From assembly GCA_963830915.1 (NCBI GenBank), contig CAWHOE010000042.1, positions 15,186 to 79,185 on the forward strand: 64,000 nt of DNA. The letters are read 5' to 3'. The notes under the pieces are model-generated. The model saw only the letters and a list, made by a program, of their open reading frames with translations, was not told the DNA's origin and did not search any database. The stretch comes from a candidate division FCPU426 bacterium. GTDB lineage: Bacteria > Oederibacteriota > Muellerivitia > Muellerivitales > Muellerivitaceae. The position numbers were made by a program, and so were the translations under genes. This document shows, one piece after another, positions 24,867 to 62,385 of the stretch. How positions within the stretch are numbered: the first letter of the stretch is position 1; the number at the start of each line of letters is the position of its first letter.

Positions 24867-24955
24867 ATGCCGACCTTCAATAAAAAAGCTTTAAAAGAGG
24901 TCGGTATAGTACCGATTTCCAATTAATTCAAATTGGATAATCGGCACAGAGACAC
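24867..24955 (+). repeat. Structured repeat family A, copy 1 (ATGCCGACCTT...AGAGGTCGGTATAGTACCGATTTCC...AATCGGCACAGAG)
   Basis: Four-arm inverted-repeat element shared with 27584, 30560, 56252(-), 62172(+), 62289(-). Confidence 0.7.
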
Positions 24956-25050
24956 AGCTAGCTTTTCCACAAAAAATTTGGTTTTAAATCAAAAATCAAG
25001 TTGTAACTGTGAACTCTGTGAGCTGCCGAAGGCAGCCTGTGGTGAAAAGA
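24943..25050 (+). repeat. Repeat family B module: CACAGAG runs plus hairpin GCTGCCGAAGGCAGC-CTGTGGTGAAAAG
   Basis: Same module at 38176-38285 (GCGCCGCCGAAGGCGGC-CTGTGGTAAAAAG). Confidence 0.55.
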
Positions 25051-25100
25051 TTTTATGTTTCAGTGGTGAATAGGTTTTTTGTGAGGGGAAAGGGGCGGTG

Positions 25101-25709
25101 ATGTCCTACAAAGGCCAAAGTTACAAGAGCCTGATCGGAATGCCGGGATTCAGCGATGAATTACTGGATATCCACTTGAAGCTTTACGAGGGTTACGTCG
25201 CCCATTTCAGTTCCATGATCGATTCCCTGAACAAATCAACCAGGGATCCGGGAATGGTTGAGGAGATCGAACGGGAATTTTCCTGGGAGTTCAACGGTGT
25301 CCGGCTCCACGAGGCTTATTTCGGGAACGTGACGAAGCATTTCAATGTCCTGAACCCAGCCTCGGACCTGGCGTTACAGATCGTCAAGGATTTTGGGTCC
25401 GTGGAAGCCTGGGGGGATGATTTCAAGCGGGTGTGCCTCACCCCGGGGGCAGGCTGGGCGGTCCTGGCCTGGAACCCGGAAGAGAAGAGAATGGTCGATC
25501 TGTGGATCGAGGGGCACGAGGTGGGGCCCCTTTTCTACTGTGTTTCCATCCTGGTCAATGATTGTTTCGACCACGCCTATAGGACCGATTATGGGGACGA
25601 CCGGTCGGACTATACTGACGCTTTCCTCAATGTCATCGACTGGAAGGAAATCCAAAAACGATTCCAAACCGTTATCCAATTGTCGAGAGCTTTTGAGTAT
25701 TCCTTATGA
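25101..25709 (+). CDS. Fe/Mn superoxide dismutase family protein (divergent N-terminal motif)
   Basis: C-terminal DCFDHAYRTDYGDDRSDYTDAFLNVIDWKEIQKRF matches the DvWEHAYY...W-V-NW SOD signature; N-term HLKLYEGY in place of HHxKHH. Confidence 0.6.
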   Translation: MSYKGQSYKSLIGMPGFSDELLDIHLKLYEGYVAHFSSMIDSLNKSTRDPGMVEEIEREFSWEFNGVRLHEAYFGNVTKHFNVLNPASDLALQIVKDFGSVEAWGDDFKRVCLTPGAGWAVLAWNPEEKRMVDLWIEGHEVGPLFYCVSILVNDCFDHAYRTDYGDDRSDYTDAFLNVIDWKEIQKRFQTVIQLSRAFEYSL

Positions 25710-25971
25710 CCAAACGATCCATGAATAGACAAAAAGCTAAATTGATCCGGCGAAAAGTCACCCCTCTGTTGCCTCCACCCCAGAATAAAAGGGAAGGATC
25801 GCTTCCCCAGGAACCTGGTTTCCTCAACGAGGTGGATTGTTATGACGAGGGGATATTGTGGAAGCGTTTCAATGAAACAAGGCTTTCCGCCGCGTCCTAT
25901 AGCCGGGGTTGGCCCCGGTGGTATTCATAGTGGTTCGACCTGATGTTTTTCCATGGCGGAACTGGATAAGC

Positions 25972-27015
25972 ATGGGCCTTTTGATAATGCCATCCTGGGC
26001 CGTTGCCCAAACCCCGACGGCAAGCACCACGCCCGTTCCAAGCAAGAACCTGGTCTATGTGTTGGACAAGATATGGCCCGGGGATGGGACGAACGGGCTT
26101 AGCCTGAAGGACCCGGAAGCCTTGTCCTGCGCTCCTGACGGCTCGGTCTATATCGCCGACACGGGGAACAACCGCATCGTTCAATGGAAACAGGATAAAA
26201 AAGTCATCCGGACCATCGGAAAATTCGGCGCCCAGGCTGATTGGGCCAATCCTCCCGAGTTCAACCAACCCAGCGGCATCCTCATCCATCCTTCAGGCCG
26301 TATTTATGTGGGGGACACCCTTAACCACCGGATCGTGAAGTTGGACGCCGATGGGATGGTGGTGACGGTTTTTGGGGGGCAGGGTTCGGAAACTGGTTTC
26401 TTCAACATGCCGCGGACCATCGCCAATGACCGCTACGGGAATATATGGGTCCTGGATACGGGGAATTCCAGGATCCAGATCTTCAGCGCCATGGGCGAGT
26501 TCCAATTCGCTTGGGGGTCCTTTGGGACGGGTGATTATCAGCTCAATAATCCCATGGGCATGGCCATCAACCCGATCGACCAGGGAATCATCGCCGATAC
26601 GGGCAATTTCAGGTTCGAGGTTTTTAATGACGCCGCGGCCCCGGTCACCCAGGTGGGTTGGTACGGCAATGGGCCCCAGCAGTTCAAAGAGCCCTCGGGG
26701 ATCGCGGTCTCCAAAACGGGTCTAATGGCCATCGCCAACGCGGACCGGGTCGACTTTTATAACGATAACGACGGTGATTTTGAATATATGGGACGATGGA
26801 AACCGGATAGCCATTGGGATAGGTTGAAAACAGGTCCGCGGTTCCGTGGTATCGCCTGTGACCGGAAGAACCGGATCTATGTGACCGACGTCAATAATAA
26901 CTGGTTGGTCCGTCTTAAACCGGTGGACCGATTTAGGGTTCAGGCTACCCCGGAACCATCGCCAACCCCTCCGCCTTCTGAACCATATACCGGGAACGGT
27001 TATCCCATCCGATAA
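25972..27015 (+). CDS. NHL-repeat beta-propeller protein, secreted
   Basis: Repeated ...YIADTGNNRIV / YVGDTLNHRIVK / WVLDTGNSRIQIF blocks; signal peptide from M22 of the listed ORF. Confidence 0.75.
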   Translation: MGLLIMPSWAVAQTPTASTTPVPSKNLVYVLDKIWPGDGTNGLSLKDPEALSCAPDGSVYIADTGNNRIVQWKQDKKVIRTIGKFGAQADWANPPEFNQPSGILIHPSGRIYVGDTLNHRIVKLDADGMVVTVFGGQGSETGFFNMPRTIANDRYGNIWVLDTGNSRIQIFSAMGEFQFAWGSFGTGDYQLNNPMGMAINPIDQGIIADTGNFRFEVFNDAAAPVTQVGWYGNGPQQFKEPSGIAVSKTGLMAIANADRVDFYNDNDGDFEYMGRWKPDSHWDRLKTGPRFRGIACDRKNRIYVTDVNNNWLVRLKPVDRFRVQATPEPSPTPPPSEPYTGNGYPIR

Positions 27016-27102
27016 GTCCGCTATTAAAATTGTCTGATGAGTCAACGCCCGTGAGAAAAAATGATTTATAATTTCCCATCGGTAGGTAATGAAAGAGGGA
27101 AA

Positions 27103-27570
27103 ATGAGGACGAACACCCGAAAAATATTCGGTTTCATTTGTGGTGTCGGACTTATGATCGGATCGGCCGGGTGCGCGGTGACCCTTTATGATTGGCCGGC
27201 GGTCGCTCAAAAGCTGGATGGGGAAGGGTCCTATCCCGCCTTGAATACCAGCGAGGTCTATTTCTTTCTCTCGAAAGAAGCTTTCCCCCCGGACCTCCAT
27301 TGGGTGGAAGTCTGTACGCTCCTGCCGCCCCAGAGATGCGAATGGTCGGATCGGAAGCTGATCAGCGAGTTCCAGGTGAAAGCGGCGGAAAACGGCGCCA
27401 ACGCGGTCATATTCGATTCGGTGAATACGATCAAGACGGAATTCGGTTTCTTTGTTTATACCGGACGCGCCACCTGTTACAGGCTATACAAACAAGACCC
27501 CTCGGAGGATGTGGATCTTAGTTCCTCCCAATACGGGACCCAGGCCCCTAACCTAACAGAAGTTAAATAA
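27103..27570 (+). CDS. Hypothetical lipoprotein
   Basis: Lipobox LMIGSAGC after N-terminal basic stretch. Confidence 0.5.
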   Translation: MRTNTRKIFGFICGVGLMIGSAGCAVTLYDWPAVAQKLDGEGSYPALNTSEVYFFLSKEAFPPDLHWVEVCTLLPPQRCEWSDRKLISEFQVKAAENGANAVIFDSVNTIKTEFGFFVYTGRATCYRLYKQDPSEDVDLSSSQYGTQAPNLTEVK

Positions 27571-27583
27571 AAAACTATTCAGC

Positions 27584-27690
27584 ACAGTGCCGACCTTTAT
27601 ATAAGTAATTAAAGAGGTCGGTATTGTACCGATTTCTTATACATCTATTATTTTGGTGAATCTGTATAAGACACAGAGTCACATGCCGAG
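27584..27690 (+). repeat. Repeat family A, copy 2
   Basis: GTGCCGACCTTT...AGAGGTCGGTATTGTACCGATTTC...AATCTGTATAAGACACAGAG. Confidence 0.65.
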
Positions 27691-27727
27691 GCCGGGCCAA
27701 ATTACCGATATCGTTTATTTCGGGATT

Positions 27728-27904
27728 TTATCTCGTTCCGCTTCGTATGTATTTTTCAGCTTCGAGCCAATCGGTCAATTCATCTCCCGCCTGTTCGATC
27801 CTTCCCCGATTCAAATAACTGTAATAAGCGGCTTCCTCGATCTTCTGGGTGTTATCCACGCTCTTTGAGAGCGGGATGGTTTTCTCTGTTTTCTTATTGA
27901 ACAT
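27728..27904 (-). CDS. DUF2934 small protein (paralog 1)
   Basis: IEEAAYYSYLNRGRIEQAGDELTDWLEAEKYI matches DUF2934 core (AY..WE.RG.P.G.D..DW..AE); start chosen at MFNKKTEK downstream of the sigma-54 site. Confidence 0.65.
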   Translation of the reverse strand: MFNKKTEKTIPLSKSVDNTQKIEEAAYYSYLNRGRIEQAGDELTDWLEAEKYIRSGTR

Positions 27905-27972
27905 AACGACTTCCTTGATCGGATTATGCTGCCCAACCTGTTCGTTACATCGGCTTTTGCTTATCCGTAAAA

Positions 27973-27986
27973 GCAAGAAACGAGCC
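27973..27986 (-). promoter_or_regulatory. sigma-54 promoter (GGCTCGTTTCTTGC) for DUF2934 gene
   Basis: GG-N10-GC; about 57 nt upstream of ATG 27904. Confidence 0.5.
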
Positions 27987-28036
27987 GTGTTTTGATGGGC
28001 GAAAGTACCGAATTTTCACCTTTCATTATTTTTGGC

Positions 28037-28070
28037 GATCAAAACGAGAGGCAAATGTCTTTATTGATCG
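28037..28070. promoter_or_regulatory. Candidate UAS GATCAAAACGAG-N12-TTATTGATCG shared by divergent promoters
   Basis: Motif family as at 24096, 31343, 39674, 50944. Confidence 0.45.
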
Positions 28071-28110
28071 CATCGATGAAATAAATAGTCATGACAGCGG
28101 GAAAACCCGC

Positions 28111-28124
28111 GGCACGTTCCTTGC
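28111..28124 (+). promoter_or_regulatory. sigma-54 promoter GGCACGTTCCTTGC (+TTTAACACCCTCC) for DUF3494 gene
   Basis: Perfect match to TGGCACG-N4-TTGC consensus; 27-nt block identical to 39803-39830. Confidence 0.6.
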
Positions 28125-28188
28125 TTTAACACCCTCCATGGTTTTCGTTCTCAAAACAGAAATCCAAATAATACGCAAGGAAGTTAAA

Positions 28189-28986
28189 GTGAAAAAGTTC
28201 ATAGCTCTTTCGATCATGCTGGCACTGTTCCCGGCGGTCTTTATGACGGGATGTACCGGCTCAACGCCGACAGGTTCAAGCAACAATGGGGGCCCGACCG
28301 CAACACCAACGGCCACACCCATTCCGGGCATTTATTTAACGCCCCAAACCACCCCTCAAGCGCAGGTCTCCCTATTGACCGCGGCTAATTACGTGATCCT
28401 GTCCTACACGGGGATCACCAATAGCGGGCCCAGCACCACCTGCGGGGGTTATGGGGTCTATCCGGATGGATTGACCTCGGTAACGGGTTCTCCCGCGATC
28501 GTGGAGAATTGCGGCGGGGCCATTGATGTGGGCGATGCCACCGCGGATCAGGCCAAAAAAGACCTGGGAACGGCATATACCAACATCGGGAACCGGGTAG
28601 GCGGCGCGCCCATCCCGTCAGGCGCCGATATCGGGGGAACGACCCTGTATCCCGGTCTGTACATTGACAACGGGGACCTGAACATATCCTCCTCGGATTT
28701 GACCCTGGACGCCCAAGGCGACTCGACCGCCATCTTTATCTTCAAGGTTTCGGGCGTACTGACCGTCGCGACCAGCCGAAAGGTCACCCTGGCCAATAAC
28801 GCGAACGCCGCCAATGTCTATTGGTGGTTGACCAAGAACTGTACCTTGAACGCTTCCGTCCAAATGAAGGGGACCATCATGGCTTATACCTCCGTCACCT
28901 TCGGCAACAGTACCGTGCTGACCGGGCGGGCCCTGGCCGAAAACGGGGATGTAACTTTGCTGACCAATACCATTACCCATCCTTAA
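28189..28986 (+). CDS. DUF3494 / ice-binding-like family lipoprotein (beta-solenoid)
   Basis: Lipobox AVFMTGC; ILSYTGITNSG, IDVGDATADQAKKDLGTAY, GTTLYPGLY, NVYWWL, GTIMAYTSVTF, GRALAENGDVTL match the ice-binding-like fold family; GTG start (ATG at 28138 lies before the promoter-proximal segment). Confidence 0.65.
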   Translation: MKKFIALSIMLALFPAVFMTGCTGSTPTGSSNNGGPTATPTATPIPGIYLTPQTTPQAQVSLLTAANYVILSYTGITNSGPSTTCGGYGVYPDGLTSVTGSPAIVENCGGAIDVGDATADQAKKDLGTAYTNIGNRVGGAPIPSGADIGGTTLYPGLYIDNGDLNISSSDLTLDAQGDSTAIFIFKVSGVLTVATSRKVTLANNANAANVYWWLTKNCTLNASVQMKGTIMAYTSVTFGNSTVLTGRALAENGDVTLLTNTITHP

Positions 28987-29016
28987 ACGAAGGTAGAGGA
29001 GAACGTGAGTCAAAGG

Positions 29017-29052
29017 AAAGCGCGGACCAGGCCAAAGCCCGGTCCGCTTTTC
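29017..29052 (+). terminator. Rho-independent terminator
   Basis: GCGCGGACCAGG-ccaaag-CCCGGTCCGC followed by TTTT. Confidence 0.6.
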
Positions 29053-29110
29053 CATATTGAAGGGATTCAAAACTGTTGAACGGGTCTCAAAAATAAAGGA
29101 GGTTTCTGTC

Positions 29111-29401
29111 ATGGGCGCGAAAAGGGACGCTTACGTTGAGGAAATAAAAGGGAAGATCGACCATTGGAACCTGGAGATCGATAAGTTCCAGGCCAAGGCG
29201 GACATTGCCAAGGCGAAGGCCCAAGTCCAATACCTGAAACATATCGAGGAATTGAAGGACAAACGCAAGGAAGTCGAAGCGAAGCTGGATGAAATTCAGC
29301 GGTCCAGCGAAACGGCCTGGGAAGACGTGAAAGCCGGGGCGGATAAAGCATGGAAGTCCATGAGTGAGACGATCAAGATCGCTCGATCCAGGTTCAAATG
29401 A
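29111..29401 (+). CDS. Small coiled-coil hypothetical protein
   Basis: AAGGAGG RBS; heptad-rich KAKAQVQYLKHIEELKDKRKEVEAKLDEIQ. Confidence 0.45.
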   Translation: MGAKRDAYVEEIKGKIDHWNLEIDKFQAKADIAKAKAQVQYLKHIEELKDKRKEVEAKLDEIQRSSETAWEDVKAGADKAWKSMSETIKIARSRFK

Positions 29402-29415
29402 CGATCGAAGGGGGT

Positions 29416-30534
29416 ATGAAAGCCAGGACCAGCAGTTCAAATTCGCTTCTCATTCCTTTTCATTACAAGTCATTGAACATGCGCAACCGTTTTGTCATGG
29501 CCCCCATGACCCGTAATTTCTCGCCCAACGGTATACCCACCGCAGAGGTGGCCGCCTATTACCGACGCCGCGCCGAGGGGAATGTGGGGCTCATCCTTTC
29601 CGAAGGCACGGTCATTAATCGGCCGTCGAGCGCCAACTTGCCGGGTATTCCGCGTTTTTACGGGAAAGAATCCCTGGAGGGCTGGAAGGGAGTCATCGAT
29701 AGTGTCCATGAGGCGGGAGGGGTGATGGGTCCTCAGATCTGGCATGTGGGTATCGGGAGCCCGACCCCAACCGGGAATTGGAAACCCGATGCTCCTGCCG
29801 AGGGTCCCTCAGGCTTGTATGGCCCCAGTCTTTCCAACGGTGTCGCCATGAGCGAGAAGGACATCCAGGACACTATCCAGGCTTATGGGGACGCCGCGGG
29901 CGAGGCCAAGCGGATGGGATTCGATACGGTCGAGATCCACGGGGCCCATGGTTATCTTATCGATGAGTTTTTTTGGGCCGCCACCAATCAGCGGGAAGAT
30001 AGTTACGGCGGGAAGACCCTGCCAGAAAGATCCAGATTCGCGATCGAGGTGGTTGAGGCGGTGCGCCGAGCGGTCGGTGATGAATTCACTGTTATCTTGA
30101 GGCTTTCCCAATGGAAGCCCATGGACTACAAGGCCAAGCTGGCCCAAAACCCCAAGGAAATGGAAGCCTGGCTTGTTCCATTGGCCGAGGCGGGTGTGGA
30201 CATTTTCCATTGTTCCCAGCGCAGGTTCTGGGAGGCCGAGTTTCCTGAATCCAGTCTTAATTTCGCAGGATGGGCCAAAAGGTTGACCGGAAAACCGACC
30301 ATCACGGTGGGCTCGGTGGGTTTGACCGGGGAATTCATCGGCGCTTTCAAAGGCGAGGGCTCGGAAGCCCACTCGACCGATGACGTGATCCGCCGTTTCG
30401 AGAATGGGGAGTTCGACCTGGTGGCTGTGGGCCGGGCGGTGCTGTCCGACCCCAACTGGGTCCTTAAGATCGAGCGGGACCGGTTCACGGAATTGATTGG
30501 GTTCAACCAGGAAGACCTGAAAAGACTGACTTAG
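29416..30534 (+). CDS. Old Yellow Enzyme family NAD(P)H:flavin oxidoreductase (alkene reductase)
   Basis: FVMAPMTR, GLILSEGT, HGAHGYLIDEFF, VGRAVLSDPNW are canonical OYE motifs. Confidence 0.85.
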   Translation: MKARTSSSNSLLIPFHYKSLNMRNRFVMAPMTRNFSPNGIPTAEVAAYYRRRAEGNVGLILSEGTVINRPSSANLPGIPRFYGKESLEGWKGVIDSVHEAGGVMGPQIWHVGIGSPTPTGNWKPDAPAEGPSGLYGPSLSNGVAMSEKDIQDTIQAYGDAAGEAKRMGFDTVEIHGAHGYLIDEFFWAATNQREDSYGGKTLPERSRFAIEVVEAVRRAVGDEFTVILRLSQWKPMDYKAKLAQNPKEMEAWLVPLAEAGVDIFHCSQRRFWEAEFPESSLNFAGWAKRLTGKPTITVGSVGLTGEFIGAFKGEGSEAHSTDDVIRRFENGEFDLVAVGRAVLSDPNWVLKIERDRFTELIGFNQEDLKRLT

Positions 30535-30559
30535 AACTCAAAACGGAAATGTTCTTAAA

Positions 30560-30862
30560 CCACATGCCGACTTCCGATTAAAAAATATTTTAAAGATGTC
30601 GGTATTGTACCGATTTCAAAATTTTATATGGAGAATCGGCACAGAGTCGCACGGAGTCACACGTGCCGCTTTTCAATAGACATAATAAGAATGCGGTATT
30701 GTCCCGATTTCTTTGGCCTTTCGGGCCAAAGGGGACAGAGTTAAGTCTCTTTTTTGTAAATCCCATCAATCCCATTAATCTGTGGCTAAAACATCTTTTG
30801 GTTTAATGTGGAATCAAATCCCAATGTCTTACTCTGTGTGACTCCGTGCGACTCTGTGGTGA
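30560..30862 (+). repeat. Composite repeat: family A copy 3 (30560-30652) plus inverted CACAGAGTCGCACGGAGTCACAC / CTCTGTGTGACTCCGTGCGACTCTGTGG pair flanking about 160 nt
   Basis: CATGCCGACTTCC...AGATGTCGGTATTGTACCGATTTC...AATCGGCACAGAG; second TATTGTCCCGATTTC half-copy at 30693. Confidence 0.6.
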
Positions 30863-30871
30863 AAGCCTTGC

Positions 30872-31051
30872 TTATGGTTCTGTTAGGCTATCCCACACCT
30901 CTTTTTCAGCTTCGGCCCAGTCACACATCTTGTCGCCCGCCTGGGCGTAACGCTCCCGGTTCAAATAACAGTAATAGGCGGCTTGTTCGATCTGTTGGGT
31001 GATCTCAGTCTCGGTCAGCGCGACTTTTTTTTGTTTTGTGTCATCGCTCAT
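30872..31051 (-). CDS. DUF2934 small protein (paralog 2)
   Basis: IEQAAYYCYLNRERYAQAGDKMCDWAEAEKEV; start at MSDDTKQKK. Confidence 0.6.
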   Translation of the reverse strand: MSDDTKQKKVALTETEITQQIEQAAYYCYLNRERYAQAGDKMCDWAEAEKEVWDSLTEP

Positions 31052-31081
31052 TTCGGATCCTTTTTGGGAGTATTCATCATT

Positions 31082-31245
31082 AACCACCAAGGCACCAAGA
31101 CACCAAGAAAATCTTTTTGAAGGTGTTTGAAAAACCAAGAAGGCAATCTAAATGAATCTCTTGTTTGAATTTGTAACTTAAAGAATTTTTCTTCACAAAG
31201 ACTACAAGGGTTTCTTTGTGCCTTGGTGCCTTGGTGGTTCAAATT
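31082..31245. mobile_element. MITE-like element: inverted repeats TTAACCACCAAGGCACCAAGACACCAAGAAAAT / TTTGTGCCTTGGTGCCTTGGTGGTTCAAATT flanking about 105 bp
   Basis: Arms built from CCTTGGTG octamer iterations; second full copy at 52779-52952, solo arm at 45592-45628. Confidence 0.55.
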
Positions 31246-31267
31246 GTGTTTTGGGTTAACAGTGAGT

Positions 31268-31281
31268 GCAAGAAACAAGCC
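31268..31281 (-). promoter_or_regulatory. sigma-54 promoter (GGCTTGTTTCTTGCA) upstream of DUF2934 paralog 2
   Basis: GG-N10-GC with TTGCA; long (about 200 nt) leader containing the MITE-like element. Confidence 0.4.
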
Positions 31282-31342
31282 GAGTCGTTTCGATCCGATC
31301 TTTTGTAATTTGACCCTTTTTCGATGGTTCCATCCCAAGAAA

Positions 31343-31376
31343 ATCAAAACGAGACCGAAACCGATCATTTTGATCG
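31343..31376. promoter_or_regulatory. Candidate UAS ATCAAAACGAG-N9-GATCATTTTGATCG
   Basis: About 95-125 nt upstream of the sigma-54 core at 31468. Confidence 0.5.
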
Positions 31377-31467
31377 GGAAGTCAGCGTCACATACAGGGA
31401 CGCGGGTTCCGCCCCGCAAATATCGACCTTTCTCCTTTGTTCGGTGGGGTGGAGCCGCGCCAGCGGG

Positions 31468-31481
31468 GGCACGTTCCTTGC
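31468..31481 (+). promoter_or_regulatory. sigma-54 promoter GGCACGTTCCTTGC for SPFH/PRC-barrel/H+-ATPase operon
   Basis: Perfect -24/-12 consensus; ATG 31536. Confidence 0.6.
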
Positions 31482-31535
31482 TTTAACACTAACCTCAAGT
31501 CATGGGATCAAATATCTTTCACGGAGGCTTTTGAA

Positions 31536-32465: not shown

Positions 32466-32508
32466 AGTCGGCGGTGAAAAGATACTCAAAGCTCGAAAGG
32501 AAATCAAA

Positions 32509-33279
32509 ATGTTGAATAAAGCAAAAAACATGCAGGGTTACAAATTGCACGGCAAGGATGGGGAATTGGGAACGATCCAGGAGTTCTTCTTCGACGACCA
32601 CCACTGGACGATCCGCTATCTGGTGGTTGACACGGGAACCTGGCTCGCTGGCCGACAGGTATTGATCTCTCCCTACGCGGTGACCTCGGTCCAACATGAG
32701 GGAAGATATGTCAGTGTCGAGTTGACCAAAAGGCAGATCGAGAACAGCCCGTCGTTGGAAAGCGACAAGCCGGTCTCGAGACAATTCGAGGAAACCTATC
32801 ACGACTATTACAAATTTCCCGTCTATTGGGGAGGCGCCTTCGCCTGGGGCCCCTATTCCTACATCAACCGCAACCGAGAAAACAGGGAAGAACCTGTAGC
32901 CGCTCATAAGGAGTGGGACCGCAACTTGCGCAGTACGGAAGACGTCACGAACCACCACATCCAGGCCCTGGACGGCGAGGTCGGATATGTCGAGGATTTC
33001 ATCATTGACGACGAGAACTGGGCGATCCGCTACCTGGTCGTCAGTACCAATAATTGGCTGCCGGGAAAACACGTCCTCTTGTCGACCCGCTGGATCCAGA
33101 GCGTGAGCTGGAACGAACAGAAGGTATTCGTCGGCCTGACCAGGGAGGCCATCAAGAACTCGCCTGAGTTCTCGGCCCATTCCCTCCTGACCCGGGAATA
33201 CGAGGTGGGACTGCACCGCCATTACGACCGCCATGGCTATTGGCTTGATGACCTGGAAGTTGTCAAAACCACCCATTGA
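32509..33279 (+). CDS. Tandem PRC-barrel domain protein (paralog A)
   Basis: Two repeats of LxGxxV.D..G..xG.V.DF..D...W.IRYLVV.T..WL.G..VL.S motif. Confidence 0.65.
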   Translation: MLNKAKNMQGYKLHGKDGELGTIQEFFFDDHHWTIRYLVVDTGTWLAGRQVLISPYAVTSVQHEGRYVSVELTKRQIENSPSLESDKPVSRQFEETYHDYYKFPVYWGGAFAWGPYSYINRNRENREEPVAAHKEWDRNLRSTEDVTNHHIQALDGEVGYVEDFIIDDENWAIRYLVVSTNNWLPGKHVLLSTRWIQSVSWNEQKVFVGLTREAIKNSPEFSAHSLLTREYEVGLHRHYDRHGYWLDDLEVVKTTH

Positions 33280-38175: not shown

Positions 38176-38285
38176 ACCACAGAGACACAGAGGGCACAGA
38201 GTAAGGCTTAAAGATTAAGATTTTTCTAATTAAAGATTTACTCTGTGAAACTCTGTGCGCCGCCGAAGGCGGCCTGTGGTAAAAA
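38176..38285 (+). repeat. Repeat family B module (CACAGAGACACAGAGGGCACAGAG ... ACTCTGTGAAACTCTGTGCGCCGCCGAAGGCGGCCTGTGGTAAAAAG)
   Basis: Matches 24943-25050. Confidence 0.55.
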
Positions 38286-45407: not shown

Positions 45408-45591
45408 TCCCGCTTCGAGATTATCAAGATCGATCTCATTTAAAGCCGCCAGGGCTTTCCGCATGGCGGCTTTTCTTTTGTGCCGATGAACCTGACTTCG
45501 ATAAATGAAATAGGGACATTCCCTTATTTTTTTTATTAAAAAGAGATTCATGGGAATGTGTGAAAGTTTAAAAAAAGTAATTAGATTTTGC

Positions 45592-45628
45592 TTTTCTTGG
45601 TGCCCTTGGTGCCCTTGGTGGTTCAATT
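45592..45628 (+). repeat. Solo arm of the CCTTGGTG-octamer inverted repeat (TTTTCTTGGTGCCCTTGGTGCCCTTGGTGGTTCAATT)
   Basis: Same arm as 31214-31245 and 52917-52952; its 3' end (GGTGGTTCAATTGC, 45617-45630) also fits GG-N10-GC. Confidence 0.5.
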
Positions 45629-52778: not shown

Positions 52779-52952
52779 AATTAACCACCAAGGGCACCAA
52801 GTTCACCAAGAACTAATAAAGACTTAAATTGAAAGATTTTGGAAATCGATACGACGCCGACTGCCTTAAATGTTTTCGGTGTTGGTGAATGTTCAAACAA
52901 GTGATTCTTTTTTGATTTTCTTGGTGCCCTTGGTGCCTTGGTGGTTCAATTC
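52779..52952. mobile_element. MITE-like element, copy 2: AATTAACCACCAAGGGCACCAAGTTCACCAAGAACT ... TTTTCTTGGTGCCCTTGGTGCCTTGGTGGTTCAATT flanking about 100 bp
   Basis: Same inverted-repeat family as 31082-31245. Confidence 0.55.
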
Positions 52953-55277: not shown

Positions 55278-56233
55278 CCACCAAGAACGGCTATGAAGTA
55301 TTGTTCGAGCGGCACGGGAAGAACCCCATCCTGACGGCGGACGATTGGCCCTATCCGGTCCATTCGGTCTTCAACGCGGGGGCGACCAAACTTCAGGACG
55401 GCACGACCCTTTTGCTCTGCCGGGTCGAGGACCGGCGGGGGCATTCCCATCTCTGCGCGGCCCGTTCCAAGAATGGTGTGGACGGCTGGGTTGTCGACAA
55501 AGAACCGACCCTTCTTCCCGATCCGGCGCATTTTCCGGAGGAACTTTGGGGCATCGAGGACCCCCGTATCACATTCCTGGCCGAGACCGGCCTGTACATG
55601 GTGGCTTACACGGCCTACAGCAAGGGCGGGCCCGGCGTGGCCCTGGCCGAGACGCAGGATTTTCATGTCTTCAAGCGCTACGGCATGGTCATGCAGCCTG
55701 ATGACAAGGACGCGGCCTTGTTCCCCCGTCGGATCGACGGAAGTTTCGCCCTGATCCACCGGCCCCTGACCGACCAGGGGGCCAATATCTGGATCTCTTA
55801 CTCGCCCGACCTGCAGAACTGGGGTAACCATAAACTGGTCCTGCCTGCCCGCCGGGGGGCCTGGTGGGACGCCAATAAGGTGGGGTTGACCGGGCCATTG
55901 ATCGAAACGACCAGGGGATGGCTGATGCTTTATCACGGGGTGCGCCAGACGGCATCGGGATGTATTTACAGGCTGGGGGCGGCGCTTTTGGACCTAGCCA
56001 ACCCGGAGAAATGCCTGCTCCGGGGTGATTCCTGGATATTCAGCCCCGAGGCCCCCTATGAGCGGTCGGGGGACGTGGCCAATGTGGTTTTCCCCTGCGG
56101 GCAGACCATAGACGAGGATGGGGATACCATCCGGCTTTATTACGGCGCGGCTGATACCAGCATCGCCCTGGCTACCGGGTCCATCCGCCAACTTTTACAG
56201 TGGTTGGATGAGCATGGGCAAATAACGGCCTAA
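55274..56233 (+). CDS. GH130-family glycoside hydrolase/phosphorylase (beta-mannoside phosphorylase-like)
   Basis: ATGA overlap with upstream GT; FNAGATKLQDGTTLLLCRVEDR, EDPRITFL, five-bladed propeller blocks typical of GH130. Confidence 0.75.
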   Translation: MTTKNGYEVLFERHGKNPILTADDWPYPVHSVFNAGATKLQDGTTLLLCRVEDRRGHSHLCAARSKNGVDGWVVDKEPTLLPDPAHFPEELWGIEDPRITFLAETGLYMVAYTAYSKGGPGVALAETQDFHVFKRYGMVMQPDDKDAALFPRRIDGSFALIHRPLTDQGANIWISYSPDLQNWGNHKLVLPARRGAWWDANKVGLTGPLIETTRGWLMLYHGVRQTASGCIYRLGAALLDLANPEKCLLRGDSWIFSPEAPYERSGDVANVVFPCGQTIDEDGDTIRLYYGAADTSIALATGSIRQLLQWLDEHGQITA

Positions 56234-56251
56234 ATTTGAGCCCAGCTGTCA

Positions 56252-56336
56252 TTGTGCCGATTTACCAATGAAATAAATGTATTGGAAATCGGTACTACAC
56301 CGACCTCTTTAATGGATTTATGGGAAGGTCGGCATG
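56252..56336 (-). repeat. Repeat family A, copy 4 (inverted orientation)
   Basis: Revcomp reads CATGCCGACCTTCC...AGAGGTCGGTGTAGTACCGATTTCC...AATCGGCACA. Confidence 0.65.
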
Positions 56337-57268
56337 CGACGAGTGACCGCCGAATAGGCGGTCGATTACGAGGTGGCAACCTCAGTCCGGGATAAGCCTT
56401 TTCACAATCCCTCCCCGTCGCCCGGGTGGATTTATAACGCCGTTATAAATTAAGGGGTCTGAATTATCACGGCGTGGTAATTTCTGATGCCTAACCCCCG
56501 CACCCATACCCCCAAATATTACCGGGTAATAAAAATTGGCAAGTGCCGGTAAATGTGCCGGTCACCGATGACATTAATTGGCAAGTCAAAAGGGGGGATT
56601 GTCGGATACTCCGACAATTAAAATAAGGGAATTTGGTGTATTTTCGAACCCAGCCCCGCTCTTGCCCAGCCGCTGGACAAAAATCCCCCGCTTGCCCCGC
56701 CGCGGGGCCCCTGTGCTGATGGTCCTTTTGCCCCGACTCGGGGCAAAGCAGTTCAGATTCTGAAAAAACTCAAATGTCCGTGACAACATTGAGGTCTTCT
56801 GTAGAGAGGGGTAAGGTGTATACGTCCAAGAGCTGTCAGCTGTTAGCTGTCGACTGCCAGCTGCCGTTAGTGAGCTGTCGACCGTCAACTGTCGACTGTT
56901 GTTCGTTGTCTCTCGGCTATCGTCCGCCCACTTGACCAATAACTTGACCGATCATTAACGAATGCAAAGAGGGAATTGGGTCCAGAGAATTTGAATGTTT
57001 CCGATCCGTAATATTTGGCCCGATGGTAAGAGGACGCTTTGATCAGAACCGTCGTACCACCGCCCCGTTTTTCACGAGAGCTCAGGTCTTATATATCGTT
57101 AAAACGCCCCTTTCTTAAAGGGTGCACTAATTCTGTCCGCTTTTGAAAAGTTCGGAAAACGCTCCCTTCGAAGGATGGATTCCGACAAAAGATATGCCTG
57201 TGAAATTAGTTTTATGTTTTAATGAGCCCCGTTGATTTGGCCATTTACCATTTCGAGGGAGGCTTCTC

Positions 57269-57954
57269 ATGATGTCGTTCCCCAAAGTATCCAGGTTGAC
57301 CATTTGTATTTTGACCCTGTTGGCGTGTTTTTATTTCGCGGGCGGGAAGGCCTATTCACAAGCCGATAAACCCGCCGCCGTGGAAACGGCCGCGCCCCCG
57401 GCGGCACCCGCGCCCCCGCCAGCCTCTCCCTCCATCCCCGATTTCGAGACCAAACTGATCGCGTCAACCCCCCTGGGGTCCTTGTGGACCTGCTTCTCGC
57501 GGGCGTGGTGACCGGGGCCATCGGCGGTCTGGGCCATCGTTTGAGCCTGATGGACGAAGCTCCCTTCGCCGACCTGTCCTGGAGCCAATTGGAACAGAAA
57601 CCCGCCTTCCTGGGTGACATTCTGCTGGGCGTCATTGGGGCCTTCGCCTTCAATTACTTCTTGAAGACCGATACATTCCTCGGTTTCTGGTCCATCGCCT
57701 TATTGGGCGGGTACGGCGGCAAGGCCCTGTTGAACGGCCTGATCACCAAATTCCAACTCTCGGCGGCCCAAGCGGCCCTGAAGAAAACATCCGACGATAA
57801 GGATGAGCTGACGAAGACCCTCAAAAAGGTCCACGACGCGGTGAACACCGCGCCGGCCGCTCTTACCGCGACGGCCCAAGTTGCGGGCCAGACCGCGGAC
57901 CCCCGCCTGGACCTTATCACCCAGGCGCTGAATGAGCATAAATTCCAGGTTTGA
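57269..57954 (+). pseudogene. Signal-peptide/membrane protein split by an apparent frameshift at a C6 run (57469-57480); ORFs 57269-57511 and 57484-57954
   Basis: Upstream ORF has signal peptide + Pro/Ala linker; downstream ORF continues in +1 frame with TM helices; junction at aaCCCCCCtgggg. Confidence 0.35.
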
Positions 57955-57996
57955 TATTGGTGGTTGGCCGTACCTATGAATAAAAACAGGAGGCAT

Positions 57997-58932
57997 ATGA
58001 TGGGTCCGATGAAAATGCTGATGGCGATATTTCTGGTCCTGGGGACGGGGGCCGCGTTCGCGCAGGACTCCACGCCCACCCCCGGCGCCGCCGTGCCGGC
58101 CGCCAAAAAAGCCCACAAGGCCCAGGTCAAGGCCGCCCCAGAGGCGGGCAAGCCCGTCACCGTGACGACCACGACCGATCTGGGAAAATTACGCCGTGAC
58201 TGCATGAGGGTGTTCAACCTGGACGACAGCGGTAAGAACGTGAAGGGCGGGGACAAGAACCAGGTCGTTTTCGATTACAAGAGCCAGACCCCCTTGTGGC
58301 AGTTGAGGAAGGTGGATTTCGGGGACACGGTAACGTTCCATGTGGTGAATTTCGACTCGGGCGTCACCATCCAGATCCTCGCCCAGGTCGTCCAACCGGA
58401 CCTTTCCGCCGTCGCTTCCATGGTCAGTTCCATGAAGAACGCCCAGGGGGTGACGCTCACCTCGGCGAACCCCGTTTCACAAGGGCCCGACCCGGGGGTC
58501 ACCGTCAATCACGTGTCCTCGGTCCCGACACTGGCGACCGGCAAATATATCCTGTACTCCATGATCGTCAACGACGGCAGCGGCCCGACGACCATCAGCA
58601 ATTTCTATAAGGTCCGGGTGAAAGGGGCCATTTTCGAGTCGTCCGTGGGCCTGATGGGGGTCTTTGACGGCCTTTCGTCCCCTTTTACCATCACCCAAAC
58701 CACCCCCGCGATCTTCGCCCATCTGGAGTTCATCCCCGAGCTATTCACCATCCAGGACCTTTCCGTCGCCGGTACGGTCGGATTGGGGACCAACGGTTCG
58801 CAGAATTTGGGGTATTTCTTCGGCCTTTCCTTCCTGTATGGAAGCGACCAACGGTTGGTCCTTTCAGGCGGAACGAGCCTCTGGGCCGACCGGACCTATC
58901 CCACCCTGGCCGTTTCCTTCGCGGGTTTTTGA
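57997..58932 (+). CDS. Outer-membrane beta-barrel hypothetical protein
   Basis: AGGAGG RBS; signal peptide MMGPMKMLMAIFLVLGTGAAFA; C-terminal ...LAVSFAGF. Confidence 0.5.
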   Translation: MMGPMKMLMAIFLVLGTGAAFAQDSTPTPGAAVPAAKKAHKAQVKAAPEAGKPVTVTTTTDLGKLRRDCMRVFNLDDSGKNVKGGDKNQVVFDYKSQTPLWQLRKVDFGDTVTFHVVNFDSGVTIQILAQVVQPDLSAVASMVSSMKNAQGVTLTSANPVSQGPDPGVTVNHVSSVPTLATGKYILYSMIVNDGSGPTTISNFYKVRVKGAIFESSVGLMGVFDGLSSPFTITQTTPAIFAHLEFIPELFTIQDLSVAGTVGLGTNGSQNLGYFFGLSFLYGSDQRLVLSGGTSLWADRTYPTLAVSFAGF

Positions 58933-58962
58933 CGGCGGGTCATCCCTAGGCAAGGTGAGAGA

Positions 58963-59349
58963 ATGGGAAAATTCATCGATGTCATCAAAGAATTCCTCGA
59001 AAAATTCTGGAAAATAGGATTTTGGGGGCGTGTTTTCGTCGGTGTCATCATTTTGATATTGGTTTCAGCTTATTTTTTCAAGATCGCTCAGGTCAAACCG
59101 GACGCGTTCCTGAAATCCCTCGTCGAGATGGCCAGGCCTGCGCCAACCCCAACGCCTGTCCCGAAACTGTCCTTCAAGGACTGCGCGGAAAAATACAAGA
59201 CCTGGAGGGGGAAATCCCAGAAGGCGTTCGATGACCTGACCGTGGATGAAAAGATCGAGAACTGTAAGAAACTGGAAGTGTGCGATAACGGCGAATCGAG
59301 CCTGCAAAAGCAAAAAAACGACAAATGGTCGGAGGGGAAACTGCCATGA
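58963..59349 (+). CDS. Membrane-anchored hypothetical protein
   Basis: One TM (FWGRVFVGVIILILVSAYFF). Confidence 0.4.
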   Translation: MGKFIDVIKEFLEKFWKIGFWGRVFVGVIILILVSAYFFKIAQVKPDAFLKSLVEMARPAPTPTPVPKLSFKDCAEKYKTWRGKSQKAFDDLTVDEKIENCKKLEVCDNGESSLQKQKNDKWSEGKLP

Positions 59350-60314
59350 AAAATCATCTATGGTTGATCCTCCTGTTGGGCCTGGGTCTTTCCCCCGTTT
59401 ACGGCGATTCGGTCTCCGGTTCCATCGATAGTTATAACCAGGCCTTGGCCTTGATCGCCCAAAGCCGGTTCGACGACGCCATCTCCATATTGAACGGGCT
59501 CAAGGAACAACAGATAAATTATAAATATCTCTATGTGACCTTGGGCGACGCGTACGCGGGGAAAGGGGACTACGCTTCGGCCCAGGAAAACATGCTGTTC
59601 TATTTGAACGATATCGGCAATAAAACGGAAGACCCGGAGCGCTATGGGATCGCCCTCGGTCATTATTTGGAGGTCCTGAGCAAATTGAAGGATTGCGCGG
59701 GCGTGGACCTCTATTTCAAAAAATCCCTGGATTCCCCCGTGACGGTCTATGACGACCAGATCGACCGCGTCCAGACCTATCTCGATATAGCGGGTTTCAA
59801 GGGATGCCGCCCCGCGGATAAATTGAGATATATCAAGGAAGGGATCAAGATCCTCGGCTCGCTCGAGGCCTCGGCCTCCCAAAAAACCTGGTTCAATAAC
59901 GACTTTGGGCACGCGCTCATCCTGAAACAGACCTTTTATAACGCCGAAAGCGCGACCAAGGCCGGGGATCTGGCCCTGGCCCACCAGTATTTCCTGAACG
60001 AGAAAAAAATAAACCCAAGCGCCGTGGTGGATTGCAATATTTCCGTTTCCACCAGGCTGTTGGGCGAGAATTACAAGGAGCTGTTCTTGACCCATGTGGA
60101 TCAGGCGGGGGCGGATGGGAAAACATTGGCGGGCTACGCCAAGAACGCCGTCTCTTACTTTGAAAAGGCCTTGTCCGAATTGGAAATGGCGAAACAAGAG
60201 AAGGATTTCCCCAAATATCAGGACAGGTACACGAAATTAGCAAGTTTCGGCCAGTCCTTATTGGATTCTTTTAAGAACAGGGAAGTGGTCAAGAAGTATC
60301 TCGAGGAAAAATGA
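59346..60314 (+). CDS. TPR-like helical repeat lipoprotein, hypothetical
   Basis: Signal peptide MKNHLWLILLLGLGLSPVYG; helical repeat content. Confidence 0.5.
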   Translation: MKNHLWLILLLGLGLSPVYGDSVSGSIDSYNQALALIAQSRFDDAISILNGLKEQQINYKYLYVTLGDAYAGKGDYASAQENMLFYLNDIGNKTEDPERYGIALGHYLEVLSKLKDCAGVDLYFKKSLDSPVTVYDDQIDRVQTYLDIAGFKGCRPADKLRYIKEGIKILGSLEASASQKTWFNNDFGHALILKQTFYNAESATKAGDLALAHQYFLNEKKINPSAVVDCNISVSTRLLGENYKELFLTHVDQAGADGKTLAGYAKNAVSYFEKALSELEMAKQEKDFPKYQDRYTKLASFGQSLLDSFKNREVVKKYLEEK

Positions 60315-60316
60315 GG

Positions 60317-60394
60317 CCTTCCCGGAGAGGGGAAGGTTTTGGGCGTTCATTGGGGTTTGAAAGGGATGTGTCCAAAGGCACATCCCTTTTTTTA
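60317..60394 (+). terminator. Two tandem intrinsic terminators
   Basis: CCTTCCC-ggagag-GGGAAGG-TTTT and GGGATGTG-tccaaagg-CACATCCC-TTTTTTT. Confidence 0.65.
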
Positions 60395-60795
60395 TGCCTA
60401 AATCGAGCGGCCGTCTGTTTTATTAGATATAGACAACCAAAAGGGAAGCGTGCCAGCTCACCCGTTTCAACCGGGTGGTCTTTTTTATTTCCGGGGGTTG
60501 ATCATGTTCGATCGTGGACCAGGATGGGGAAGGGTCCCGCATCCGCTCCACCGCCCTGTTCGATCCCTTGGGCCTGGGGGGCCAGTTCTATGGGTGGTTC
60601 CTTTTTCCCATCCACAAGCTCATTTTCCGGGGCATGCTCCGGGCCATCGTCCGAAAAGCCCAAGCCAAAAAGGGGTCTTGACGCCCTCTGCTGGCCAAGC
60701 GCTACCCGGACCTAAATTTTTGAAATAAGATTACCTTAGCCGTATGATGGTTCATTGCCGATGCTGTGAACATCAACATATTGAAAGTTTAAAAA

Positions 60796-61383
60796 ATGAG
60801 AACCAGACCTACCGTTTATGTGATCGCCGGGCCGAACGGCACGGGCAAGACCACTTTCGCCACGCAGTTCTTGCCCAAGATCGCGGATTGCCGCAATTTC
60901 ATCAACGCGGACCTGATCGCCAAAGGTTTATCGCCCTTCAATGTGGATGCCGCCGCCATGCAAGCGGGGCGTCTATTCCTGGGAGGCATCCAGGAACAGG
61001 TCCGGCGAGGGGCCGATTTCGGGTTTGAAACCACTTTGTCGGGCAAGGGGTACGTGAACTTGTTCAAGGATCTTCGGGCCAAGGGTTATCTCATAAAGCT
61101 TTATTTCCTTTGGATCCCTGGGCTGGCTTTGGCCCTCAAACGGATCGCCGACCGCGTGAGCATGGGTGGTCATGATGTGCCTGCGGAAGTGGTGCAACGC
61201 CGGTTCACCAAAGGGTTGAACAACCTCTTTCAAACCTATATGGAATTAGCGGATTACTCCGCCATATTCGACAATTCTTCTTCCGCTCCAAGGCTGGTGT
61301 TTGAACGGTCCTTAGGCCGTGATAGCATTATTGAACCGAATACTTACGGAATGATCGTCAAGATGCTGGAGGAAAGTAAATGA
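60796..61383 (+). CDS. Zeta-toxin-like P-loop kinase (COG4185-type predicted ATPase)
   Basis: VYVIAGPNGTGKTTFA Walker A at N-terminus, about 190 aa. Confidence 0.6.
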   Translation: MRTRPTVYVIAGPNGTGKTTFATQFLPKIADCRNFINADLIAKGLSPFNVDAAAMQAGRLFLGGIQEQVRRGADFGFETTLSGKGYVNLFKDLRAKGYLIKLYFLWIPGLALALKRIADRVSMGGHDVPAEVVQRRFTKGLNNLFQTYMELADYSAIFDNSSSAPRLVFERSLGRDSIIEPNTYGMIVKMLEESK

Positions 61384-61688
61384 AGCCTTCCAAAAAACAA
61401 AGTCCTTTGAGAGCCTCCAGGGCCGCGAAAGTCGTCAAGGGTCATCCGTCCAAAGAGGGATTGATGGCCGAAAAGGCGTTGAAGATGGCCGTGGCCGGCG
61501 TCATCGAGGAACATCGGCGCCTGGGTTTGCCCATCGCCGTCATGAAGAACGGCAAAGCTGTTTATGTGAGCGTGAATGAAAAAGTACCGGCTCTTTCAGA
61601 GGTTCGAGAACTTCCGGCGCCTTACGCGGGTAAAAAACCCCTGACGGATAGACCGATAAAGAAGGTGAAGCGCAAGGGAATGGCCTGA
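61380..61688 (+). CDS. Small basic protein overlapping the zeta-like gene stop (possible partner/antitoxin)
   Basis: ATGA overlap; 102 aa; no recognised domain. Confidence 0.35.
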   Translation: MKPSKKQSPLRASRAAKVVKGHPSKEGLMAEKALKMAVAGVIEEHRRLGLPIAVMKNGKAVYVSVNEKVPALSEVRELPAPYAGKKPLTDRPIKKVKRKGMA

Positions 61689-62164
61689 CCTAGGGCTTAT
61701 CCTATAGCGGTCCTTTCTGTAGGCCTTGCTCACCGGCTTGACCAATAACTTGACTAATACTTGACTAATAATTTGGGGCAGTTTGTGGTGGATTTCTTCT
61801 TTCGGCCGACCTGCCCATCGACCTGCCCTCCGTAACCTTGGTGAAGGAGGGAGCCTTGGCGTAGGCGGATGGCGTAGGCCGAGGGTGCCCAAAAAACGAG
61901 GAAAATCATTTAGCCTTTTGATGAGGGTGTAGGTTCAATCGTGGGCCAGGTCGGAGGGACCCGATAAACGGAGAAAATCTATTTTCTACGGTTTGGGGGA
62001 CGGCCCCTGTAGCAGAGCCTATCGGCACGCTACAGGGCATGCTGTAAGGGCAACGCCATGAAGTGTGCCCGCAGGGCTCTACTTCATGGGTGGTCCAAAG
62101 GACCAACCACGATTATCTTTATCTATATCGGTGTTCATCGGTGGCTAAATCGATTTTGATGTAT

Positions 62165-62385
62165 CTGTGTCCATGCCGACCTTCATATGATTATTTATTG
62201 AGGTCGGTATAGTACCGATTTCCATATTATTAATTTCATTAGGGGAATCGGCACATCTGTGGCAAAGAATGTCTTACTCTGTGTGACTCTGTGCCGATTC
62301 ACAGAAGAAATAGAAAAATAGGAAATCGGTACTATACCGACCTCTTTAACATATTTTAAAAGATGGTCGGCATGTTAACTCTGTG
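62165..62385. repeat. Repeat family A, head-to-head pair (copies 5 and 6: 62172-62255 plus, 62289-62375 minus)
   Basis: CATGCCGACCTTC...GAGGTCGGTATAGTACCGATTTCC...AATCGGCACA | TGTGCCGATT...GGAAATCGGTACTATACCGACCTC...GGTCGGCATG. Confidence 0.7.

Follow-up and report, generated by a model that had tools for sequence, protein, structure and literature searches.

Family A, a phylum-wide family of small twin-hairpin repeats in candidate division FCPU426 and its relatives

We analysed a short repeated element, here called family A, in a 64,000-nt stretch of DNA from a candidate division FCPU426 bacterium (GenBank assembly GCA_963830915.1, contig CAWHOE010000042.1, positions 15,186 to 79,185 of the forward strand; hereafter the window). 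Family A is a real, phylum-wide and previously undescribed family of small non-autonomous repeats, of the kind represented by repetitive extragenic palindromic (REP) elements, palindrome-associated transposable elements (PATEs) and miniature inverted-repeat transposable elements (MITEs), and it is the first interspersed-repeat family described for candidate division FCPU426 and its relatives, which form an uncultured lineage of soil and peat. The element is probably non-autonomous mobile DNA that a trans-acting enzyme recognises as a folded single strand. An initial annotation of the window had listed six copies and had offered two identities for them, either a structured RNA of small size or an element of the REP/MITE type served by a dedicated recombinase elsewhere. 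The REP/MITE-like identity is borne out by occurrence in many genomes, intergenic location, random orientation, presence or absence at the same site and sharp borders, whereas the RNA identity is not, and no REP-associated tyrosine transposase (RAYT) or recombinase could be tied to the element.

The core GGTCGGTAnnGTACCGATTTC, a 21-mer for which up to three mismatches were allowed, has 6 matches in the window against 0.02 expected, and none of 100 shuffled sequences reached 6. A covariance model, R1, was built from 61 copies and the window was searched with it by cmsearch with the filters off, which gave a tally of six clear copies, one degenerate copy (30662-30737) and two possible relics. 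All six copies of the initial annotation lie within 1-3 nt of where they had been placed, and inspection of the sequence shows the four arms a (TGCCGACCT), a' (AGGTCGGTA), b (TACCGATTTCC) and b' (AATCGGCACAG) at each of them; the last two do form a head-to-head pair (62172-62255 on the plus and 62290-62374 on the minus strand). The opposite strand of every copy in the window is also found by R1, with about 30 bits less, so that family A is a pseudo-palindrome with a defined polarity.

An exact scan for a 20-mer core in one genome per species yielded 66 loci in 15 species-representative metagenome-assembled genomes (MAGs), with 2-22 matches per MAG in 10 of the 15 and a single match in each of the other five. 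Most of these MAGs are labelled candidate division FCPU426, and a few carry the unconfirmed labels proteobacterium, delta proteobacterium or Firestonebacteria. The same core pattern is present in 86 JGI metagenome contigs (peat/soil). In all there are about 190 core matches, over 1.1 Mb of sequence around copies, and R1 mapped 96 copies across the window, the MAG loci and relatives with the superoxide dismutase (SOD) locus discussed below. At the 66 MAG loci the copies lie nearly always outside long open reading frames (ORFs), as far as crude ORF calls allow. Inverted doublets recur, at 62172/62290 in the window and at three other loci (L005, L021, L009). Viral contigs gave no core match and plasmids and phages no blastn match, and two contigs of the same strain (L067, L068) are identical to the window and hence uninformative. 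Rfam 15 at gathering threshold found only a fluoride riboswitch elsewhere in the window and nothing at the element; there was likewise no match at the element in nine other element-bearing loci, no family at E up to 5 in an E-value scan of 56150-57350, and only a chance miRNA match for one copy at E up to 10. The papers on FCPU426 that a literature search brought up deal with ecology only. The refuting outcomes named in the initial annotation are not seen: family A is not restricted to the window but extends to the 15 MAGs and 86 metagenome contigs, and compensatory base changes exist, as described next.

The conserved fold

RNAalifold, applied to 61 copies, predicts the hairpins a:a' and b:b' side by side, with a single base between them. 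Pair counts were taken from a MAFFT alignment (A5) of 76 distinct sequences, diverged copies included. In the twin-hairpin model 91.9% of cells are paired, and 14 of the 21 pairs have changes on both sides. These amount to 66 double-change cells, compared with 10.6 ± 2.7 in shuffled alignments (0 of 500 reached 66); slid controls gave no more than 24. The fold is shown most clearly by subfamilies with wholly different yet complementary stems. Stem 1 occurs as GCCGACC/GGTCGGT, GCCAGCC/GGCTGGT, GCCACC/GGTGGT and CCCGCAT/ATGCGGG, and stem 2 as TACCGATT/AATCGGCA, CACCGATC/GATCGGCG and GTCCCACA/TGTGGGAC. The AT-rich loops measure anywhere from ~17 to ~50 nt and at seven loci (L008, L012, L013, L034, L043, L033, L056) include an extra GC-rich hairpin; the feet of the hairpins read CATGCC and AGTACC or AGTCCC (alignments A2 and A5). 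When both strands are folded as single-stranded DNA (ssDNA) they are about equally stable (-12 to -18.5 kcal/mol, z -2.8 to -6.9); G.U pairs are present on the plus strand.

The initial annotation had considered either two hairpins or a cloverleaf in which a also pairs with b'. Covariation upholds the two hairpins. In the main subfamily a could pair with b' and a' with b, but this pairing has 13 double-change cells only and is broken in the variant subfamilies. Because a:b' covaries far less and fails in the variants, we rejected the cloverleaf and take the twin hairpin as the conserved fold; a:b' pairing results only from the resemblance of the arms in the main subfamily, all four of which carry the motif RTRCCGAYY. 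In the variant subfamilies the termini are no longer inverted repeats, and a:a' and b:b' remain complementary.

A 9-nt motif present four times in alternating orientation, with fixed spacing between a' and b, is also what one would expect of sites bound as duplex by a host protein, whether nucleoid-associated, Xer-type or similar, the four half-sites forming two palindromes. We consider this reading highly improbable, as the arm sequence can be replaced provided that pairing is kept, the stems undergo compensatory swaps, the a-a' and b-b' spacings are free, and the sites come and go at orthologous positions.

Borders, and filled and empty sites

The copies are bordered by CA/TGCC...GGCA/CA (slashes mark the borders), and the length between the flanking CAs is ~80 nt (about 76-80, up to ~115 with loop insertions) rather than the ~90 nt given in the initial annotation. 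Among 148 distinct sites CA precedes TGCC in 144 and follows GGCA in 143, while positions further out vary. Many copies are located in octamer runs (CACCAAGN, CACAGAGN, CACAAAGN), and removal of TGCC...GGCA together with one CA restores the octamer period. Octamer blocks of this type make up a second repeat family of the window, family B, which consists of inverted pairs of octamer or decamer blocks (CACCAAGN, CACAGAGT and others) forming hairpin-like inverted repeats of ~120-220 nt. Some of these pairs are interrupted by insertions of family A, for which family B is a preferred host site. In the pair 30640/30828 two copies of family A interrupt the left arm, and the uninterrupted right arm (30823-30862, minus strand) serves as an internal empty-site reference for both (copies 3 and 4 below). 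Deleting 30565-30643 and 30664-30737 leaves the left arm CTTAAACCACAGAGTCGCACGGAGTCACACGGAGTTAAG, which aligns to the reverse complement of the right arm over both junctions, perfectly at the first. Depending on the copy, family A occupies the first, second or third octamer of the B arms, and because the occupied octamer differs the insertions are independent. The sites have the appearance of a 2-bp CA target duplication. Since the CA is invariant, specificity for CA and duplication of CA are inseparable: a CA on both sides of the element and a single CA in the empty site are as compatible with a target CA plus an element that ends in CA as with a 2-bp duplication.

Orthologous loci with and without the element were found at two places. 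The spacer between the genes for an outer membrane protein (OMP) and SOD is 261 nt long in the window, with the element inside; in two relatives, with SOD identities of 65% and 62%, it measures 25 and 22 nt and has no element. The site upstream of ftsE is filled in five species (L003, identical to L097; L039; L040; L128; L152), with the element in sense and exactly between a conserved promoter-like TTGCGR-17-TAATTT and the start codon, in the layout ..TAATTTAnnnnn-CA[TGCC...GGAGAATCGGCA]C-ATG. FtsE orthologues for the empty-site test were picked without regard to the presence of the element, and all five of these loci with DNA read were empty (L162, L164, L166, L168, L170): their sequence is ..TAATTTAnnnn(n)C-ATG, and cmsearch finds no element in them. 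In a sixth contig the yceG-ftsE gap is 73 nt, too short for the promoter region plus the element. Identity to the FtsE protein of L039 is 54-82% for empty and 52-76% for filled loci, and on a neighbour-joining tree filled and empty loci are mixed; its topology is approximate, as it is based on this one protein. The pattern reflects either several entries into exactly this site or several precise losses, and therefore mobility with clean junctions either way.

In the five empty loci the TTGCGR-17-TAATTT box ends 6-7 nt before the ATG, and judged from this arrangement ftsE without the element appears to be a leaderless gene. A filled ftsE would gain a leader of ~80 nt with two hairpins and a GGAG 9 nt before the ATG. 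The locus would then be a natural example of a mobile repeat apparently turning a leaderless gene into a leadered one.

Regarding the orientation of the nearest long ORFs, 19 of the 66 loci are co-directional with the element in sense, 16 lie between convergent ORFs, 16 are co-directional with the element in antisense and 15 lie between divergent ORFs, again on crude ORF calls. The location at the 3' ends of genes proposed in the initial annotation holds within the window (DUF2934, old yellow enzyme (OYE) and GH130 genes) and does not extend to the 66 other loci, where copies between divergent ORFs (15/66) are not depleted. Because orientation is even across the four classes, a strand-specific role as RNA is disfavoured. 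No U-tract follows the hairpins, as the element is succeeded by CA and variable sequence, and a consensus scan detected no excess of terminators or promoters: terminator-like sites number 16 against 10.4 ± 3.4 expected, and within the element the only part flagged was the short a':b hairpin at its centre, in two copies and on the minus strand. A discrete small-RNA gene is not supported. Two further candidates were dropped, namely a small ORF, MPTFHKAVKEVGIVPIS, starting from the ATG of the element, the frame of which is broken or stopped in most copies, and a glmS ribozyme suspected around the copy upstream of glmS in L036, which Rfam scans did not bear out.

A host cis-acting RNA structure (a stabiliser in an untranslated region, a terminator-like barrier or a translational leader) that was dispersed only secondarily would account for the compensatory changes in both stems, the G.U pairs on the plus strand, the sense placement at ftsE between the -10-like box and the ATG in five species with GGAG 9 nt upstream, and the position of most window copies behind the 3' ends of genes. 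We nevertheless judge such an origin quite unlikely. Orientation is random, and of the 66 copies 16 run antisense to the genes on either side and 15 are flanked by divergent genes; there is no U-tract, terminator-like matches do not exceed chance and no Rfam family matches; the element is absent from the same ftsE and OMP-SOD sites in close relatives; and both strands fold equally well when computed as ssDNA.

Mode of mobilisation

In the account that we favour, the mobile unit consists of hairpin 1 (ATGCC..-loop-..GGTAT), one linker base and hairpin 2 (GTMCC..-loop-..GGSAC). It integrates at a CA dinucleotide, giving CA on both sides, with a single CA in the empty site. Its favoured targets are the octamer blocks (CACCAAGN, CACAGAGN) of the B arms, on their CA-rich strand, and a CA overlapping a start codon (CATG). 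Selection would act on hairpin formation and not on the arm sequence or on terminal inverted repeats (TIRs), leaving loop length free, and the enzyme would be supplied in trans, cutting at the feet of the hairpins and joining seamlessly in the manner of a RAYT or another Y1 HUH transposase. Individual copies may be co-opted as a side effect, for example at ftsE with the element between the -10-like box and the start codon. Recognition as a folded single strand is proposed because pairing rather than the arms or TIRs is kept, because loop length is free, and because a fixed dinucleotide is found at the feet of the hairpins. Empty sites that look seamless agree with chemistry of this type.

Several observations weigh against this account. 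Within 1.5 kb of the ~190 copies in the 1.1 Mb there is no gene for a transposase, a RAYT or an IS200-like protein, and a regular-expression search for HUH, RAYT and IS200 motifs over the same sequence, a crude motif test, gave no match. Transposition of ssDNA on the lagging strand would be expected to bias orientation relative to GC skew; the ratio observed for local GC skew is 55:40 (p 0.18), which is not significant in a weak test. In MAG JOPF088 family B forms a MITE-like unit of ~190 nt with the ends TTAAGAACCTCTAACAAAAA and TTTTTGTTAGAGCCTCTTAA, and many identical A copies ride in a B::A composite of ~270 nt with the ends TTAAGAACCTCTAACAAAAA...TTTTTGTTAGAGCCTCTTAA; these copies spread as the larger composite and not as A alone, so that part of the copy number in this MAG is owed to B. 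The copies at ftsE have subtype features in common (GACTT, GGAG) though the FtsE proteins are just 46-76% identical, and this common subtype could reflect retention in place for a host function. The borders, taken up below, count in the same direction: in the main subfamily the flanking CA...CA with a 6-bp TIR is what a DDE-type MITE with a 2-bp duplication would show, and an element moved by a serine recombinase would look alike.

The search for an enzyme also covered the ORFs between paired copies, with no candidate emerging, and 500 ORFs within 1.5 kb of copies were clustered and the recurrent ones compared with Pfam. The recurrent neighbours are FtsE/FtsX/YceG, ORF6N, a helicase, a cyclase and a membrane protein. 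Solo hairpins that might mark the ends of an autonomous element turned out to be decayed copies and variants only, and no full-length insertion sequence (IS) with family A ends is present in the 1.1 Mb.

The main subfamily has a perfect 6-bp TIR with TG..CA ends, combined with a CA repeat at ~97% of sites, as would be seen in a MITE of a DDE transposase. Here the TIRs 5'-TGCCGA...TCGGCA-3' would be read as duplex, CA would be a 2-bp duplication, and a' and b would be extra binding sites; the empty site with one CA and the RTRCCGAYY common to the four arms fit as well. Nonetheless a DDE origin seems unlikely to us. The TIR measures just 6 bp and is lost in variants whose a:a' and b:b' stay complementary, hairpin insertions let the spacing of the half-sites range from ~17 to ~50 nt, the 1.1 Mb contain no full-length IS that ends in these repeats, and the repeated clean empty sites at ftsE are atypical of cut-and-paste footprints.

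The invariance of the flanking dinucleotide with a single CA in empty sites would also be expected of an element moved by a site-specific recombinase (an IS607-like serine recombinase or similar), with CA as the crossover, precise excision, and TCGGCA-CA-TGCCGA as a palindromic crossover site. Precise excision is also compatible with the interspersion of filled and empty ftsE loci, and both the b'-CA-a junction and the centre a'-TAG-b are palindromic. This is again a reading to which we give little credence: covariation tracks the hairpins and not the junction palindrome, the b'/a symmetry is broken in variant subfamilies, and there is no resolvase or integrase near any copy, the two tyrosine integrases of the window being 10-20 kb from the nearest copy and part of an integrated element. 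The DDE and serine-recombinase readings are both rated lower than recognition of a folded strand because the variants lose terminal symmetry yet keep their hairpins.

On the most far-reaching reading, family A might be the substrate of an undescribed mobilisation system, a twin-hairpin unit recognised as a single strand and both inserted and excised seamlessly at a bare CA by an enzyme confined to the uncultured phylum. We hold this to be possible, if rather doubtful. Such a system may favour single-stranded or structured targets, that is, the palindromic arms of repeats and the transcription start of leaderless genes, and might rewire genes by giving them, as in the ftsE case, a structured leader that carries a ribosome-binding site.

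Recognition of a folded strand by a RAYT-like or Y1 enzyme invites comparison with known systems. REP elements, bacterial interspersed mosaic elements (BIMEs) and REPINs are known from Proteobacteria and are mobilised by RAYT enzymes of the Y1 HUH type. The link of these elements to RAYT was reportedly treated by Bertels and Rainey in 2011 and by Ton-Hoang, Messing and their respective co-workers in 2012. Like REP and BIME elements, family A consists of short extragenic imperfect palindromes with many copies per genome (7 in 64 kb), often in inverted doublets, with conserved bases at the hairpin foot, a fixed border dinucleotide (CT for E. coli REP, CA for family A) and no transposase adjoining the copies. 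It differs from them in that it lacks the 5' tetranucleotide GTAG/GTGG, its loops are long (17-25 nt), AT-rich and tolerant of insertions, and its unit is made up of two different hairpins in fixed polarity; moreover it has no 3'-end bias, is not depleted between divergent genes, and no RAYT was detected in the 1.1 Mb around its copies. With the PATEs of IS200/IS605 elements (the 'peel and paste' systems IS608 and ISDra2) it has in common a hairpin at each end without a long TIR, what appear to be oriented insertion by a short fixed sequence and seamless empty sites, and probably selection of fold over sequence. In contrast to PATEs, the target of family A has 2 nt (CA) instead of 4-5 nt read by guide bases, its hairpins begin directly at the cut sites, and neither tnpA (in the 1.1 Mb around copies) nor a bias for a replication strand was detected.

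Family A also resembles the Correia (CREE) MITEs of Neisseria and the RUP and BOX MITEs of Streptococcus, which are ~80-150 nt long, intergenic, often nested within other repeats and able to contribute promoter or leader parts to neighbouring genes; Correia elements in addition have a fixed 2-bp flanking repeat (TA). Unlike in these MITEs, the TIR of family A is 6 bp long and dispensable in variants, and the conserved feature is the internal pairing of the hairpins. Integron attC sites, like family A on the favoured account, are recombined as folded single strands, vary in their terminal structure and lie near the 3' ends of genes, but family A has no RYYYAAC/GTTRRRY boxes (consensus of A2/A5), no cassettes and no integrase or attI, forms two hairpins and not one, and has ordinary housekeeping genes as neighbours.

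The exact boundaries, the covariance model and the filled/empty pairs make family A useful for the annotation of MAGs and as a strain-level marker, and help to avoid false calls of small RNAs or riboswitches and to explain assembly breaks. The combination of seamless insertion at CA with selection on hairpins rather than on terminal repeats offers a clean test case for finding an enzyme by phylogenetic co-occurrence.

Copies in the window, family B and neighbouring features

Copy 1 (24866-24948, plus strand, 82.6 bits) reads CA/TGCCGACC...AATCGGCA/CA, is situated between the OMP (beta-barrel) and SOD genes, and is nested in the octamer block ACCACGGAGACA-CA[..]CA-GAGACACAG. In copy 2 (27586-27668, plus strand, 58.7 bits), which is flanked by a 169-aa ORF (27061-27570, plus strand) and a DUF2934 gene (27728-27976, minus strand), the 3' arm b' has decayed (GAATCTGTATAA). 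Copy 3 (30563-30643, plus strand, 77.6 bits) is of the GACTT/GGAG subtype and interrupts a family-B inverted repeat at the first octamer of its left arm, in the region between an OYE (Oxidored_FMN) gene and a second DUF2934 gene, the latter a weak match (E 0.0076, 16.3 bits) under the 22-bit cut-off. The third octamer of the same arm hosts the degenerate copy 4 (30662-30737, plus strand, 31.6 bits), whose stems are changed yet paired (GCCGC/GCGG, and GTCCC..GGGAC with an inner TTTGGCC/GGCCAAA, in alignment A5). Copy 5 (56253-56336, minus strand, 80.2 bits) lies 20 nt past the stop codon of a GH130 gene (Pfam GH130) and is abutted by a hairpin module at 56337-56365. The head-to-head pair is composed of copy 6 on the left (62172-62255, plus strand, 78.0 bits) and copy 7 on the right (62290-62374, minus strand, 78.2 bits), separated by a spacer of 34 nt; copy 7 is nested in the block AACCACAGAGTTAA-CA[..]CA-GAGTCACACAGAGTAAG. 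Of the two possible relics, one at 45479-45543 (minus strand, 18.1 bits, E 0.017) is located beside a family-B block. The other, at 52815-52883 (minus strand), is a weak match to the A core (GGAAATCGATACGACGCCGACTG) that came from the repeat search and from cmsearch (11 bits, E 0.9) and lies inside the loop of a family-B inverted repeat.

A block scan placed family B in the window at 24855-25045, 30640-30862, 31082-31239, 38178-38257, 45594-45623, 52783-52943 and 62268-62294. An interpretation of the octamer blocks as sigma-70 promoters (TTGGTG-18-TTCAAT) was dropped as unneeded, since the blocks occur as inverted pairs in every intergenic context.

The hairpin module next to copy 5 (GACCGCCTATTCGGCGGTC and ACTCGTCG, with ..CTGAGGTTGC.. 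in front) is found directly at the 5' end of family A in several loci that are unrelated to one another, in the window (56337-56420, minus strand) as well as in L036, L041, L032, L051 and L046, with ATGAC after the 3' end of A. Together the module and A look like another composite repeat. The adjoining region 56337-57260 comprises ~900 nt without a convincing ORF and contains GC-rich hairpins and AGCTGTCAGCTGT-type repeats at 56831-56900, which are found again at 62405-62446.

A repeated motif, GGCACGTTCCTTGCTTT, is present at 28111, 31468 and 39803 on the plus and at 19810, 27968, 39611 and 50631 on the minus strand, and fits the sigma-54 -24/-12 consensus. Wherever it was inspected it is near a start codon, for instance ~10 nt before the ATG at 28138 (an ice-binding-like gene) and just upstream of the DUF2934 gene at 27976. 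Palindromes of the form ATCAAAAnGAG...TTTTGATCG, which could be activator sites, occur ~100 nt further upstream of GGCACGTTCCTTGCTTT, at 31343, 38712, 39675 and 50944.

Between 32497 and 34433 internal DNA repeats (D1, D3, D5; 150-300 nt, 64-75% identity) extend over neighbouring ORFs that start with MxxKxxxLKxYKL..FYFDD, which suggests putative tandem paralogous genes. The first part of the window (8-16552) is integrated mobile DNA with two tyrosine-integrase genes (4250-5320 and 13403-14473) that are 92% identical, an HTH_17 ORF (3786-4241), a TraG-like ATPase (8-1174) and an AbiEi/AbiEii toxin-antitoxin pair (14994-16552); none of its genes adjoins family A. The fluoride riboswitch (RF01734, 6928-6993, plus strand, 49 bits) is upstream of an ORF at ~7000-8316, and a CrcB-like ORF is found at 8745-9125. 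In MAG MFD05512.bin.1.167 the locus L035 carries a group II intron domain (RF02003, 6069-6201, plus strand, 57.8 bits) ~3 kb from a copy of family A.

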